Source of the DNA: Escherichia coli
GTDB lineage: Bacteria > Pseudomonadota > Gammaproteobacteria > Enterobacterales > Enterobacteriaceae
Reading direction: 5' to 3' (one strand)
Assembly (NCBI RefSeq): GCF_036507355.1
Contig: NZ_AP027877.1
DNA: 64,000 nucleotides
Position 1 is the stretch's first letter. The number at the start of each line of letters is the position of its first letter. Below, one piece after another: positions 3,119 through 57,105 of the stretch. A model generated the notes under the pieces. That model made no database searches. It had not been told where the DNA came from and saw nothing but the letters and a program-made list of their open reading frames with translations. Position numbers and translations under genes: made by a program.

Positions 3119-3298
3119 ATCAGGCTCCGGAGAATTGGGGCCGTCCCCGGTGAAAAGAGGCGTTTGCAGGTCGTCCTGCAAAGCTGATGGTTGAACGGAT
3201 ATTTTGCCAGGTGGCAGAGGAATTTCAACTATTACCTTTGTGACTATCGCAAAAAAACAAACGGCACGACACAGCTGTCGTACCGTTATTGCTTATTG

Positions 3299-3732: not shown

Positions 3733-4299
3733 TTACTTCACGCGAGAGACGTATTCACCAGAGCGGGTATCCACTTTGATGACTTCGCCGATTTGTACGA
3801 ACAGCGGAACTTTAACCACAGCGCCAGTAGACAGGGTAGCCGGTTTGCCGCCAGTACCTGCGGTATCACCTTTCAGGCCCGGATCGGTATCAACGATTTC
3901 CAGTTCAACGAAGTTCGGCGGAGTAACGGAGATCGGCTGACCATTCCACAGAGTTACGATACACTCTGCCTGATCCAGCAGCCATTTAGCGTTGTCGCCA
4001 ATTGCTTTTGCGTCAGCAGACAGCTGCTCGAAAGTTTCGTTGTTCATGAAGTGCCAGAACTCACCGTCGTTGTACAGGTAAGTCAGGTTCATATCGACAA
4101 CATCAGCGCCTTCAGCGGAATCAGTAGATTTGAAGGTTTTTTCTACGCGAGTACCGGTCAGCAGACGACGCAGTTTAACGCGAGCAAATGCCTGGCCTTT
4201 ACCCGGTTTTACGAATTCACTCGCTTCAACCGCGTAAGGTTCGCCGTCTAACATGATTTTAAGACCAGCACGAAAATCGTTGCTATAGTACGTTGCCAT
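3733..4299 (-). CDS. efp: Elongation factor P (188 aa)
   Basis: Track ORF 3733..4299(-); [46 protein letters not shown]... with the modified Lys34 context KPGKGQA. Confidence 0.97.
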
Positions 4300-18147: not shown

Positions 18148-18223
18148 GCCCGGATAGCTCAGTCGGTAGAGCAGGGGATTGAAAATCCCCGTGTCCTTGG
18201 TTCGATTCCGAGTCCGGGCACCA
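18148..18223 (+). tRNA. pheU: tRNA-Phe (anticodon GAA), 76 nt with encoded CCA
   Basis: GCCCGGATAGCTCAGTCGGTAGAGCAGGGGATTGAAAATCCCCGTGTCCTTGGTTCGATTCCGAGTCCGGGCACCA; acceptor stem GCCCGGA/TCCGGGC, anticodon loop ATTGAAAAT, T-loop GGTTCGATTCC. Confidence 0.97.
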
Positions 18224-45081: not shown

Positions 45082-45184
45082 TTCCCCTTAATCCAGCAAA
45101 GATAAAAGCCAACCTTAAGAACTTAAGGTTGGCTTAATTTTGCTTTGCGAGCATATGCGCACTTTGTTCGATGGAAACACCGTG

Positions 45185-47493: not shown

Positions 47494-47502
47494 TTGAATC
47501 TG

Positions 47503-48594
47503 ATGCGTTTTCTGCGCCGACCAATATCGCTGCGCCAACGGCTGATATTGACCATCGGGGCCATTTTGTTGGTGTTTGAGCTGATCAGCGTCTTCTGGCT
47601 ATGGCATGAAAGTACCGAGCAGATTCAGCTGTTTGAGCAGGCGCTACGCGACAATCGCAACAACGATCGCCACATCATGCGTGAGATCCGCGAGGCGGTC
47701 GCCAGCCTGATTGTCCCCGGCGTCTTTATGGTCAGCCTGACGCTATTTATCTGCTATCAGGCGGTACGCCGCATCACCCGCCCGCTGGCGGAGCTGCAAA
47801 AAGAGCTGGAAGCGCGCACCGCCGACAACTTAACGCCCATTGCCATTCACAGCGCCACCCTCGAAATCGAAGCGGTGGTTTCGGCGTTGAACGATCTGGT
47901 CAGTCGCCTGACCAGCACGCTGGATAACGAAAGGTTATTTACCGCTGACGTCGCGCACGAACTGCGAACGCCACTGGCGGGGGTGCGTTTGCATCTGGAA
48001 CTGCTGGCGAAAACGCATCACATTGATGTAGCACCGTTAGTGGCACGGCTTGATCAGATGATGGAGAGCGTCTCCCAGCTGCTGCAACTGGCGCGTGCCG
48101 GACAGTCATTTTCTTCCGGTAATTATCAACATGTAAAACTGCTGGAAGATGTCATTCTCCCCTCGTATGACGAACTCAGTACCATGCTCGACCAGCGCCA
48201 GCAAACCCTGCTATTGCCAGAGAGCGCCGCCGACATCACCGTTCAGGGTGATGCAACCCTGCTGCGGATGTTATTGCGAAATCTGGTAGAAAATGCCCAT
48301 CGTTACAGCCCGCAAGGCAGCAACATTATGATTAAGCTGCAAGAAGATGGCGGAGCGGTCATGGCCGTTGAAGATGAAGGACCGGGTATTGATGAGAGTA
48401 AATGCGGGGAGTTGAGTAAAGCGTTTGTACGAATGGACAGCCGTTATGGCGGGATTGGTCTGGGGTTAAGTATTGTCAGCCGCATTACACAGTTGCATCA
48501 CGGGCAGTTTTTCCTGCAAAACCGGCAAGAGACTTCTGGCACGCGCGCCTGGATACGGCTGAAGAAAGATCAGTACGTGGCAAACCAGATATAA
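47503..48594 (+). CDS. basS: Sensor histidine kinase BasS/PmrB (363 aa)
   Basis: Within track ORF 47494..48594 (track starts at TTG); ATG 47503 gives MRFLRRPISLRQRLILTIGAILLVFELISVFWLWHES...; H-box HELRTPL. Confidence 0.92.
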   Translation: MRFLRRPISLRQRLILTIGAILLVFELISVFWLWHESTEQIQLFEQALRDNRNNDRHIMREIREAVASLIVPGVFMVSLTLFICYQAVRRITRPLAELQKELEARTADNLTPIAIHSATLEIEAVVSALNDLVSRLTSTLDNERLFTADVAHELRTPLAGVRLHLELLAKTHHIDVAPLVARLDQMMESVSQLLQLARAGQSFSSGNYQHVKLLEDVILPSYDELSTMLDQRQQTLLLPESAADITVQGDATLLRMLLRNLVENAHRYSPQGSNIMIKLQEDGGAVMAVEDEGPGIDESKCGELSKAFVRMDSRYGGIGLGLSIVSRITQLHHGQFFLQNRQETSGTRAWIRLKKDQYVANQI

Positions 48595-48659
48595 AGAAAG
48601 CTGCTGACCACCAGCACGCTGAACACGGTAGTTAAACTTTCATAAACACGGTTTTTCAT
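48570..48659 (-). CDS. pmrR: Small membrane protein PmrR (29 aa)
   Basis: Reverse-complement translation MKNRVYESLTTVFSVLVVSSFLYIWFATY*; GGAG RBS upstream; 3' end overlaps the last 25 nt of basS on the opposite strand. Confidence 0.8.
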   Translation of the reverse strand: MKNRVYESLTTVFSVLVVSSFLYIWFATY

Positions 48660-48773
48660 TGCACTCTCCTCCGTTAACCTGGAGGAGAGTATGCGCGTCA
48701 GAGATTAAGTGAACCTTAAGAGTTCAATTGTTGGTCTGATAAGACAGCGTCACATCAGGCCATCCGTTTCAGC

Positions 48774-50276
48774 TTATTCATCAATTCGCGGATGTTGCTG
48801 CACCAGGCGGGTACGTTTCGCCTGCAAATCGGCAATCTCGTGGTCAATATCATCGATTTTCTGCTCGATATTATCGTAATGCTCGACGAGAATTTCCTTC
48901 GCTTCCTGTATATCTGACGCCGCCGGTGTTGCACCTTTCAACGGACGATTTGCCGTCTCTTTCATGGTTACGCCGGTGATTAAACCAACCACCGCCACTA
49001 CCATCAGGTAATAGGCTGGCATCATCAGATTCTGCGAGCTTTCGACCAGCCAGGCCGCCAGTGTTGGCGTCAGACCGGCAACCAGCACCGAAATATTAAA
49101 TGCCGCCGCCAGCGCGCTGTAACGGATATGCGTCGGGAACATCGCTGGCAAGGTAGAAGCCATAACGCCCGTAAAGCAGTTAAGGATCACCGCCAGCATC
49201 AGTAACCCGGCAAAAATCAGGCCGATGACGTTACTGTTAATCAGAATAAACGCCGGGATCGCCAACACAAACAGGGCAACACTACCAAGTAGCACAAACG
49301 GACGACGGCCAAAACGGTCACTCAGCAAGCCCATCACCGGCTGGACAAACAGCATACCGATCATAATGGCGATAATAATCAGCACCCCGTGGTCTTCGGA
49401 GTAATGCAGGTTATGCGACAAATAACTCGGCATATAGGTCAGCAACATGTAGTAAGTCACGTTGGTGGCAATTACCAGACCAATACATGTCAACAGGCTG
49501 CGCCAGTATTTAGTGGCAATCTCTTTAAACGAGACTTTCGGGCCATCCTGCAAACCTTCGCGGTCGCCCTGTTCCAGTTTTTCAACATGCTGCTGGAACG
49601 CCGGAGTTTCTTCCAGCGCATGGCGCAGGTAAAGCCCGATAATCCCTAACGGCAGAGCAATAAAGAACGGAATACGCCAGCCCCAGTCGAGGAAGTTCGC
49701 TTCGCCGACAATGGTCGAAATTAACACCACCACGCCCGCACCCAGCACAAACCCGGCAATAGAACCGAAGTCCAGCCAGCTGCCCATAAAGCCACGTTTA
49801 CGGTCAGGGGAGTATTCCGCAACAAATATCGACGCCCCGGTATATTCACCGCCGACCGAGAAACCTTGTGCCATCTTACAGATCAACAGCAGAATCGGTG
49901 CCCAAATACCAATCGTGTCGTAGGACGGTATTAAGCCAATACAGAACGTACTGATCGACATAATCACAATAGTGATAGCGAGGATCTTCTGGCGACCATA
50001 TTTATCGCCCAACATACCAAAGAAGAGCCCGCCAAGCGGTCGAATCAGAAAGGGAACGGAGAACGTGGCAAGTGCAGCAACCATCTGCACGCTGGGGTCA
50101 GCCCCCGGGAAAAAAACTTTACCTAATGCGTAAGCAACAAAACCATAAACACCAAAATCGAACCATTCCATTGCATTACCCAGTGATGCTGCGGTAATGG
50201 CTTTACGCAGTTTACCGTCATCAATAATGGTGACATCACGAAGGGTAATCGGTTTTACTTTTTTCCTTTTCAGCAT
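48774..50276 (-). CDS. proP: Proline/glycine betaine:H+ symporter ProP (500 aa)
   Basis: Within track ORF 48774..50309(-); start placed at MLKRKKVKPITLRDVTIIDDGKLRKAITAASLGNAMEWFDFGVYGF...; C-terminal coiled-coil extension. Confidence 0.95.
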   Translation of the reverse strand: MLKRKKVKPITLRDVTIIDDGKLRKAITAASLGNAMEWFDFGVYGFVAYALGKVFFPGADPSVQMVAALATFSVPFLIRPLGGLFFGMLGDKYGRQKILAITIVIMSISTFCIGLIPSYDTIGIWAPILLLICKMAQGFSVGGEYTGASIFVAEYSPDRKRGFMGSWLDFGSIAGFVLGAGVVVLISTIVGEANFLDWGWRIPFFIALPLGIIGLYLRHALEETPAFQQHVEKLEQGDREGLQDGPKVSFKEIATKYWRSLLTCIGLVIATNVTYYMLLTYMPSYLSHNLHYSEDHGVLIIIAIMIGMLFVQPVMGLLSDRFGRRPFVLLGSVALFVLAIPAFILINSNVIGLIFAGLLMLAVILNCFTGVMASTLPAMFPTHIRYSALAAAFNISVLVAGLTPTLAAWLVESSQNLMMPAYYLMVVAVVGLITGVTMKETANRPLKGATPAASDIQEAKEILVEHYDNIEQKIDDIDHEIADLQAKRTRLVQQHPRIDE

Positions 50277-54392: not shown

Positions 54393-54545
<153 letters not shown>

Positions 54546-57015: not shown

Positions 57016-57105
57016 CGTAGGTCGGATAAGACGCCCCGGCGTCGCATCCGACAATGTGCAGGCGTTGATGCCGGATGCGGTGCAAGCACCTTATCCGGCC
57101 TACAG
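57016..57105. repeat. REP/BIME element
   Basis: GTAGGTCGGATAAGACGCCCCGGCGTCGCATCCGACA ... GATGCCGGATGCGGTGCAAGCACCTTATCCGGCCTAC; boundaries approximate. Confidence 0.65.

Follow-up and report, generated by a model that had tools for sequence, protein, structure and literature searches.

MgrB and MgtS are small membrane-protein regulators of the PhoPQ/PmrAB network, and PmrR resembles both in being a short single-pass peptide that is induced as part of a stress regulon and modulates a membrane enzyme or sensor. Binding and inhibition of LpxT by PmrR have been attributed to the biochemical work of Kato et al. 2012 (Mol Cell 47:897), as summarized in two later papers (PMC8004244, PMC8129183), and genetic support for the link between LpxT and PmrR has been obtained in E. 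coli (PMC8129183). For example, it has been demonstrated that deletion of the PmrA box at pmrR abolishes polymyxin resistance in PmrA-constitutive E. coli, and that resistance is restored by deletion of lpxT or by ectopic pmrR (PMC8129183). PmrR is among the factors that help to set the fate of position 1 of lipid A, that is, diphosphorylation by LpxT versus phosphoethanolamine addition by EptA, and in published work the outcome has been connected with gut colonization and with resistance to polymyxin/colistin and to bile salts. Translation of the gene, for which ribosome profiling or small-protein proteomics had been proposed as a check, is documented in published E. coli work by a Ribo-RET signal at pmrR, by fractionation of PmrR-6xHis with membranes and by complementation that is lost when the start codon is changed from ATG to TAA (PMC11429745). 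The latter work also reported that the low-Mg growth defect of an E. coli pmrR deletion is independent of lpxT, a difference from PmrR of Salmonella enterica which indicates that LpxT may not be the sole target of PmrR (PMC11429745).

The window analyzed here is a stretch of 64,000 nucleotides from Escherichia coli (contig NZ_AP027877.1 of assembly GCF_036507355.1), in which an open reading frame of 29 codons plus a stop codon lies on the minus strand at 48570..48659 and encodes the peptide MKNRVYESLTTVFSVLVVSSFLYIWFATY. The original prediction had identified this frame from the DNA letters as the membrane peptide gene pmrR, preceded by a GGAG and overlapping the 3' end of basS by 25 nt in antisense, and each of these statements holds. 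The ATG start, the stop and the coordinates are exact, and the frame appears in the ORF scan when frames as short as 20 aa are admitted. The ribosome binding site GGAGGAGAG occupies 48672..48664 and ends 4 nt before the ATG, with its GGAGG core 8 nt upstream. The peptide matches the NCBIfam equivalog NF033224, 'LpxT activity modulator PmrR', with 74.2 bits against a cut-off of 30 (E = 5.2e-21), its residues 1-29 aligning to the full length of the profile (positions 1-29 of 29), and RefSeq annotates pmrR at exactly the same place. The best 15-residue Kyte-Doolittle mean of its hydrophobic core is 2.18. Within the species, 5411 of the 5426 complete E. coli genomes contain the region at a coverage of at least 80%, and all records listed carry the annotation 'LpxT activity modulator PmrR' at identical coordinates relative to pmrB. 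No evidence contradicting the identification was found, and we conclude with high confidence that the frame is pmrR, which in Enterobacteriaceae is a small companion gene of the eptA-pmrA-pmrB (eptA-basRS) module. Existing annotation and publications already cover the gene as well as the PmrA box and the overlap with pmrB, which are therefore not new; in overlap, PmrA box, peptide and annotation the window matches pmrR of E. coli K-12, which is the same gene (PMC8129183, PMC11429745).

It could be argued that such a frame has arisen by chance and is open only because the conserved 3' end of pmrB runs along the other strand. Short frames are indeed abundant, with 104 ORFs of at least 20 aa within 7 kb, so that an ORF of the size of pmrR alone is not beyond chance, and pmrB constrains 25 of the 90 nt of pmrR. 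The remaining 65 nt, however, lie outside pmrB, and the comparison across species weighs heavily against a chance frame. In a breadth set of 80 pmrB loci from different species, obtained from one genome scan that included no Salmonella, Shigella or Citrobacter freundii-group locus, the peptide and its reading frame are kept across Enterobacteriaceae in 55 loci, as a hydrophobic ORF of 29-33 aa with a PmrA box at fixed spacing; conservation in related genomes, on which the original prediction had made its case depend, is therefore well borne out. Among 56 sequences, 51 encode a peptide of 29-30 aa, and differences per codon position amount to 0.51, 0.36 and 0.59 across the set. F and W are invariant, and the C-terminal motif W-x-x-[TS]-[YF] is kept even in the absence of overlap with pmrB; ORF, length and motif alike persist where the overlap is zero or negative. 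Moreover, the ORF is always paired with a PmrA box and a Shine-Dalgarno (SD) sequence at fixed spacing, and in Pectobacterium, Rahnella, Rouxiella and others, which possess pmrB, the ORF and the box are missing together. Because the match to the PmrR model (E = 5e-21), the upstream PmrA box and the conservation of the ORF in 55 of 80 loci coincide, the gene stands above chance, and a fortuitous frame is practically negligible as an explanation.

The arrangement of pmrR with respect to its neighbors is similar throughout the loci compared. The sensor kinase gene basS/pmrB (47494..48594, plus strand; identified by its ORF, by NF008025 with 644 bits and by annotation) converges on pmrR, and the two coding regions overlap in antisense at 48570..48594, a stretch of 25 nt that includes both stop codons and is identical in RefSeq; this overlap has already been described in E. 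coli (PMC8129183). A convergent, abutting or overlapping arrangement of pmrR and pmrB occurs in all 56 pmrR-bearing loci, and the gene upstream of pmrR is always co-directional, being uvrB in most other genera and proP in the window (48774..50276, minus strand; 1503 nt in RefSeq), where proP is a possible source of read-through. The coding overlap itself ranges from -8 to +57 nt between genera; since its extent varies to this degree it is not conserved, and it was rejected as a selected feature.

Full-length pmrR and basS mRNAs must overlap because the coding regions share 25 nt, and it is a possibility, raised by the original prediction, that the convergent genes interfere with one another. 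In this regard, pmrR-basS is one of 165 convergent excludons that a published excludome detected in 50% or more of the E. coli RNA-seq samples it analyzed (PMC12288877), and together with the tight convergent arrangement in all pmrR-bearing loci this would favor the view that the main regulatory meaning of the locus is mutual repression of pmrR and eptA-basRS, through polymerase collision or cleavage of the duplex by RNase III. On the other hand, both units carry a PmrA box (at 45122 and 48704) and would be activated by the same regulator, so that one would expect them to be induced together rather than to exclude each other. The variable extent of the coding overlap also speaks against this view, no reports of reciprocal expression for the pmrR/basS pair were found, and arnT induction survives deletion of the PmrA box of pmrR, indicating that PmrAB function is intact without it (PMC8129183). 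Mutual repression as the principal role of the arrangement is therefore considered unlikely.

The PmrA dependence of pmrR is reflected in its upstream region, where the original prediction had suggested that a PmrA (BasR) box should be sought. Using the motif YTTAAK-N5-YTTAAK, which stands in place of a -35 element, a perfect predicted box, CTTAAGGTTCACTTAAT, was located at 48704..48720 on the minus strand, 44 nt upstream of the pmrR ATG. The sole other match in the window, CTTAAGGTTGGCTTAAT at 45122..45138 on the plus strand, is that of the eptA-basRS operon, a member of the same regulon, and lies at the similar distance of 46 nt from its ATG; the two matches compare with 0.14 expected by chance in 64 kb. 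In 55 other loci the box is found 41-46 nt from the start codon and is followed exactly 10 nt later by the hexamer nAnACT, of which A2, A4, C5 and T6 are each conserved in at least 90%. The corresponding -10-like hexamer of the window, CATACT, occupies 48688..48693 on the minus strand at the same spacing, and from these elements a PmrA-dependent start site is predicted at about 48679..48683. For comparison, the geometry described for pbgP puts the pmra-box at about -37..-21, shifted by about 4 bp downstream from -41..-25 (PMC10570014). A sigma-70 consensus scan of the pmrR region reported no promoter, as is expected where a promoter depends on an activator and has no -35 element. A literature search on genomic SELEX of BasR returned nothing specific to the pmrR site, and a pmrR-proximal reporter was not induced in low Mg2+ (PMC11429745).

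In the mechanism that best accounts for the locus, phosphorylated PmrA/BasR would bind the box at 48704..48720 and substitute for the -35 element, transcription would begin approximately 20-25 nt downstream of the box, and a short leader with a strong Shine-Dalgarno sequence would direct synthesis of the 29-residue single-pass membrane peptide. PmrR would then inhibit LpxT, as in published work on Salmonella and E. coli, and with LpxT inhibited the lipid A 1-phosphate would be left free for phosphoethanolamine addition by EptA. The expected outcome is increased polymyxin resistance, decreased surface charge and feedback on PmrB signaling, and the role of a PmrA-dependent feedback component that had been assigned to the gene at the outset agrees with the findings of Kato et al. 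2012 in the form in which they are summarized in PMC8004244 and PMC8129183. PmrR of Salmonella enterica belongs to the same family (NF033224) and, as far as the summaries in PMC8004244, PMC8129183 and PMC11429745 describe it, shares the size, the position downstream of proP, facing the 3' end of pmrB in convergent orientation, and the PmrA-dependent type of promoter.

The same region is also known under a different name. On the minus strand, positions 48563..48728 match the Rfam family RF02052, 'sRNA STnc630', over its full length (model positions 1-166 of 166; 181.8 bits against a gathering score of 55), and the match covers the PmrA box, a hairpin over the SD region and the entire pmrR ORF. 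Such a match to an 'enterobacterial sRNA' family with a predicted structure could suggest that the locus is primarily a non-coding sRNA in which the ORF is incidental. However, the first 25 positions of the model correspond to the PmrA box, i.e. promoter DNA rather than RNA, and the Rfam consensus itself translates to an intact 29-aa PmrR, which differs from the peptide of the window at 5 of 29 positions, the consensus not being traced to a particular species. It is through this consensus alone that the Salmonella orthologue was compared, because the locus scan returned no Salmonella locus. Furthermore, many genera keep the ORF length and the codon-position pattern, the curated protein family NF033224 matches, and the E. 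coli product fractionates with membranes and complements the growth phenotype only if its start codon is intact (PMC11429745). We therefore regard a primarily non-coding role as very improbable, and STnc630 was rejected as a non-coding RNA since its conserved intact ORF matches a curated protein family; the locus may nevertheless give rise to a dual-function RNA. In structural terms the Rfam consensus holds the same SD hairpin as the region described here together with an internal stem, whereas its Rfam type is that of an sRNA gene and the region consists of the promoter and mRNA of a conserved, translated small protein. A text search of the literature for STnc630 found no paper, and the filing of the pmrR locus as an sRNA in Rfam is in itself a point of annotation.

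The hairpin is a feature that does not figure, either in itself or in its covariation or position relative to the promoter, in the descriptions of the gene in PMC8129183 and PMC11429745. At 48663..48690 on the minus strand the sequence forms a perfect 10-bp stem, ACTCTCCTCC-N8-GGAGGAGAGT, which is part of the Rfam STnc630 structure. The Shine-Dalgarno region of pmrR makes up the 3' arm of the stem (48663..48672), and the 5' arm (48681..48690) begins inside the -10-like hexamer. The hairpin is present in nearly all of 49 distinct sequences and is kept with compensatory changes in 51 distinct sequences, the 3' arm always coinciding with the SD and ending just before the start codon. Of the stem cells 81.3% are paired, as compared to 73.8% in shuffles (0 of 500 reached the observed value) and 37-50% when the arms are slid, although the shuffle statistics overstate independence because the loci are phylogenetically related. 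Exchange between pair types is illustrated by columns 12-33, with 17 A-U, 16 C-G, 6 G-C and 6 G-U pairs. RNAalifold on a MAFFT alignment recovered 6 of 12 pairs, a partial recovery due to differing loop lengths, and the full stem was scored with an explicit structure.

Based on these sequence features, we put forward, as a tentative model whose chances we place a little short of even, that the covarying hairpin locks the SD of pmrR and that its inhibitory arm has been positioned in the -10/discriminator region, so that only PmrA-initiated mRNA would be translatable and read-through would remain silent. The inhibitory 5' arm would be absent from PmrA-initiated transcripts, leaving them open to translation, whereas read-through RNA from the co-directional upstream gene (proP in the window, uvrB in most other genera) would include the hairpin in full and remain untranslated. 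Under this model synthesis of PmrR would be strictly PmrA-dependent. For the type I toxin mRNAs of tisB and dinQ, translation has to await the formation of a shorter 5' end. The leader proposed for pmrR would be similar in that an upstream anti-SD element makes the long RNA untranslatable, and would differ in that the translatable form would stem from promoter choice rather than from RNA processing. In line with the model, the predicted probability that the SD is unpaired is higher in the short transcript than in read-through (0.35 versus 0.14, and 0.27 versus 0.00 for E. coli), and the upstream neighbor is always co-directional. Counting against it, the SD is predicted to be no more than moderately accessible in the short transcript, and A-C combinations, which can pair only on the opposite strand, are numerous at the outer stem positions. 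If true, the model would represent promoter-specific translational licensing of a small protein, and would offer an idea of how a tiny gene located directly behind another gene could remain subject to its own activator alone.

The alternative is that the hairpin is not a translational insulator but a 3'-end element (a terminator, processing stop or stabilizer) of pmrB or proP/uvrB mRNA, or an element of pmrB expression. The hairpin lies where the 3' regions of two convergent genes coincide, the inverted repeat of E. coli folds with similar energy on both strands (-19.9 versus -20.2 kcal/mol), and the outer stem, with 39 A-C cells at columns 7 and 9, favors the pmrB-sense strand. Against this, the inner 8 pairs, the SD included, contain 33 G-U versus 8 A-C combinations and thus favor the pmrR-sense RNA, the pmrR-sense strand is the more stable one in 30 sequences versus 17 (p = 0.011), and the constant coincidence of the 3' arm with the SD is a placement that a mere 3'-end element would not need. 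The terminator scan did not report the hairpin at 48663..48690, and as an intrinsic terminator it was rejected: the stem continues into GCAATGAAAAAC on the minus strand and into ATGCGCGTCAGA on the plus strand, and neither strand supplies the T-run that a canonical intrinsic terminator has.

Published constructs bear on both readings. Colistin resistance has been shown to climb stepwise exactly as the promoter elements of pmrR are added to the constructs, first the -10 and after it the PmrA box, and constructs cut inside the hairpin yield approximately 315-fold less pmrB mRNA than longer ones, with equal mRNA half-life between constructs (PMC8004244). The 315-fold change is not obviously explained by a pure effect of PmrR expression; it counts against translational licensing and favors a role of the hairpin at the 3' end of pmrB or in its expression, whereas the unchanged half-life argues against the latter. 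The published effect of the 'pmrB 3'-UTR' would, as we infer, track the promoter elements of pmrR and, if true, the 'pmrB 3'-UTR requirement' for colistin resistance (PMC8004244) would be a requirement for the pmrR promoter. Taken with the evidence from the stem itself, a function as a 3'-end or pmrB-expression element is a serious possibility on which we lean toward doubt.

A further terminator-like stem, TGCTGGTGGTCAGCA followed by GCTTTCTTTA, was reported by the terminator scan at 48592..48616 on the minus strand, inside the pmrR coding sequence. It is confined to E. coli-like Escherichia and was rejected as a conserved feature; scanning for any such stem gave matches in 8 of 56 loci, mostly elsewhere in the ORF. 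SEnd-seq has shown that the upstream gene terminates inside the pmrR coding sequence (PMC10687069).

On the minus strand, an ATG-initiated ORF of 29 codons plus stop (48570..48659) encodes MKNRVYESLTTVFSVLVVSSFLYIWFATY and is preceded by the ribosome-binding site GGAGGAGAG (48672..48664), the GGAGG core of which lies 8 nt before the ATG. It shares 25 nt in antisense (48570..48594) with basS/pmrB (47494..48594, plus strand; NCBIfam PmrB, 644 bits), whose neighbours are the PmrA/BasR, EptA and ProP genes according to NCBIfam, so that the ORF, the upstream GGAG and the overlap described in the original prediction are exact in all details. An ORF of this length is by itself unremarkable, 7 kb containing 104 ORFs of 20 aa or longer. 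The proposed identity as PmrR is borne out by a full-length match of the peptide to the NCBIfam equivalog NF033224 'LpxT activity modulator PmrR' (74.2 bits, cut-off 30 bits). Of 5426 complete E. coli genomes, 5411 carry the 501-nt pmrR region at ≥80% coverage, all records listed annotating pmrR, pmrB and proP within it, and the best-matching record giving pmrR as a 90-nt CDS with a 25-nt pmrB overlap.

The observation is thus confirmed and its reading as pmrR supported, yet published E. coli work makes it already known. The gene, its overlap with the pmrB 3' end and its PmrA-box promoter have been reported before (PMC8129183), and the 90-bp ORF with its 25-bp overlap has also been noted (PMC8004244). 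It has been demonstrated that a PmrA-constitutive strain lacking only the pmrR PmrA box is polymyxin-sensitive and deoxycholate-resistant, and that the polymyxin sensitivity is reversed by lpxT deletion or ectopic pmrR (PMC8129183). Another study found a Ribo-RET signal for PmrR under low Mg2+, PmrR-6xHis in the membrane fraction, and a growth defect upon pmrR deletion that was independent of lpxT and complemented only with an intact start codon; low Mg2+ gave no induction of a pmrR-proximal reporter (PMC11429745).

Conservation of the reading frame was assessed in 80 loci with PmrB relatives, one per species, by seeking a convergent small ORF at the pmrB 3' end without use of the PmrR sequence. 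The window and 55 of the 80 loci share the same four elements, namely a PmrA box (at most one mismatch), a hexamer nAnACT exactly 10 nt after it, a hairpin, and a hydrophobic ORF of 29-33 codons. Taxa represented at these loci include Escherichia, Citrobacter amalonaticus, Klebsiella, Raoultella, Kluyvera, Kosakonia, Phytobacter, Pseudocitrobacter, Trabulsiella, Yokenella, Pluralibacter and several 'Enterobacter'. The ORF is 29-30 aa long in 51 of the 56 sequences and has one invariant F and one invariant W, and pairwise differences at codon positions 1, 2 and 3 (0.51, 0.36 and 0.59) follow the pattern of a coding sequence. Among the 80 loci, ORF and box are jointly absent from Pectobacterium, Rahnella, Rouxiella, Ewingella and Chimaeribacter, from a few Enterobacteriaceae in which pmrB abuts uvrB (loci L009, L012, L017 and L081), and from a few others, e.g. 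Superficieibacter. The coding overlap ranges from -8 to +57 nt in the 56 sequences; it is thus the tight convergent arrangement that is conserved, with the 25-nt overlap of the window as a lineage-specific detail. Since the C-terminal motif persists at non-overlapping loci, conservation of pmrB does not account for the ORF. Upstream of pmrR there is always a gene in the same orientation. In most genera this is uvrB, whereas Escherichia and C. amalonaticus have proP there, which places the eptA-pmrAB-pmrR module in at least two chromosomal contexts; at loci L008-L062, this upstream gene lies ~20-290 nt beyond the PmrA box. Two Escherichia loci (L002 and L005, both 4077..4205, minus) have an in-frame upstream ATG, 5 nt past the PmrA box, that would open a 42-codon ORF (MCILSSRLTEESAMK...) and is probably unused because it precedes the predicted transcription start.

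A search for a PmrA (BasR) box upstream of 48659 located CTTAAGGTTCACTTAAT at 48704..48720 (minus), 44 nt before the pmrR start codon. It is one of two matches to YTTAAK-N5-YTTAAK in the 64-kb window (0.14 expected), the second lying upstream of eptA (45122..45138, plus). The -10-like hexamer CATACT (48693..48688, minus) follows, and within it begins the 5' arm of a hairpin, ACTCTCCTCC (48690..48681, minus), which pairs perfectly over 10 bp, across an 8-nt loop, with GGAGGAGAGT (48672..48663, minus), the pmrR ribosome-binding site. Folding of 49 distinct sequences predicts a similar hairpin in nearly all of them. With 51 distinct sequences aligned, 81.3% of cells are paired against 73.8% in shuffles (0/500 as high), figures that overstate independence because the sequences are related; double-sided changes in the stem number 48 against 16 expected. 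Sturdier evidence for a selected structure than the shuffles comes from slid partners, with which paired cells fall to 37-50%, and from the occurrence of several pair types (AU17/CG16/GC6/GU6 at one stem column pair).

Evidence on the strand under selection is mixed: the inner eight pairs show 33 G-U against 8 A-C combinations and folding is more stable for the pmrR-sense strand in 30 versus 17 sequences (p = 0.011), while the outer pairs, located at invariant -10 positions, favour the opposite strand. The main alternative to a role in pmrR translation is that the hairpin serves as a 3'-end or stabilising element for pmrB or proP/uvrB transcripts; as no T-run follows the stem on either strand, it is not a canonical terminator. 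As for a translational role, the pbgP pmra-box lies ~4 bp downstream of a PhoB site at -41..-25, i.e. at about -37..-21 (PMC10570014), and by this geometry, or by 6-8 nt from the hexamer, PmrA-dependent transcription should start at ~48679..48683. Such a PmrA-driven mRNA would lack the 5' (anti-SD) arm, and read-through RNA from the upstream co-directional gene would carry the complete hairpin. The predicted unpaired probability of the Shine-Dalgarno sequence is 0.35 in the short transcript versus 0.14 in read-through RNA (E. coli, 0.27 versus 0.00). On our reading, the hairpin may tie PmrR synthesis to PmrA-initiated transcription, a promoter-specific licensing of translation that we consider a serious possibility falling slightly short of probable.

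Other structures occur nearby. An imperfect palindrome, GGCCTGATGTGACGCTGTCTTATCAGACC (~48733..48761), predicted to form a stem-loop in the interval separating the proP stop codon from the PmrA box, may resemble an E. coli REP element. Just past adiC, a perfect 14-nt inverted repeat, AAGCCAACCTTAAG / CTTAAGGTTGGCTT, 2 nt apart (45106..45135, both strands), has a terminator-like score in either direction and reaches into the eptA PmrA box, resembling pmrR in that a PmrA-dependent promoter is interleaved with a hairpin of the co-directional gene upstream. Within the pmrR coding region, a terminator-like stem with T-run (48592..48616, minus) is consistent with termination of the upstream gene inside pmrR, as indicated by SEnd-seq (PMC10687069); it is confined to E. 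coli-like Escherichia, being absent from E. albertii and other genera.

Regarding interference between the convergent genes, the 25-nt overlap stands and pmrR-basS is among 165 convergent E. coli pairs with overlapping transcription (PMC12288877), but mutual interference is only possible. Both units, eptA-basRS and pmrR, have PmrA boxes, so co-induction is expected, unlike the usual excludon logic, and arnT induction, a PmrAB output, is intact after deletion of the pmrR box (PMC8129183).

The deletion constructs of PMC8004244 were mapped to the window by primer 5' ends. DS86 (end-point 48681) has neither -10 element nor PmrA box and is susceptible to colistin, DS103 (48698) has the -10 element and full hairpin without the box (MIC 4 ug/mL), and DS126 (48720) has the -10 element and complete box (16 ug/mL); other non-resistant constructs had an MIC of 0.5 ug/mL. 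This stepwise rise with pmrR promoter elements fits the box-deletion phenotype of PMC8129183, although it leaves the pmrB mRNA level difference reported in PMC8004244 not obviously explained.

Rfam RF02052, 'enterobacterial sRNA STnc630', matches 48563..48728 (minus) over its full length with 181.8 bits. The model starts with the PmrA box, includes the SD hairpin and covers the pmrR ORF in full, and translation of its consensus gives an intact 29-aa PmrR differing from the window peptide at 5 positions; this 'sRNA' is the pmrR promoter and its mRNA, i.e. a protein-coding locus. Further Rfam matches above gathering score, at 54398..54474 (+), 57020..57100 (-), 18148..18220 (+) and 3136..3182 (-), comprise two copies of naRNA4 (nucleoid-associated RNA), one tRNA and a guanidine-II (mini-ykkC) riboswitch.
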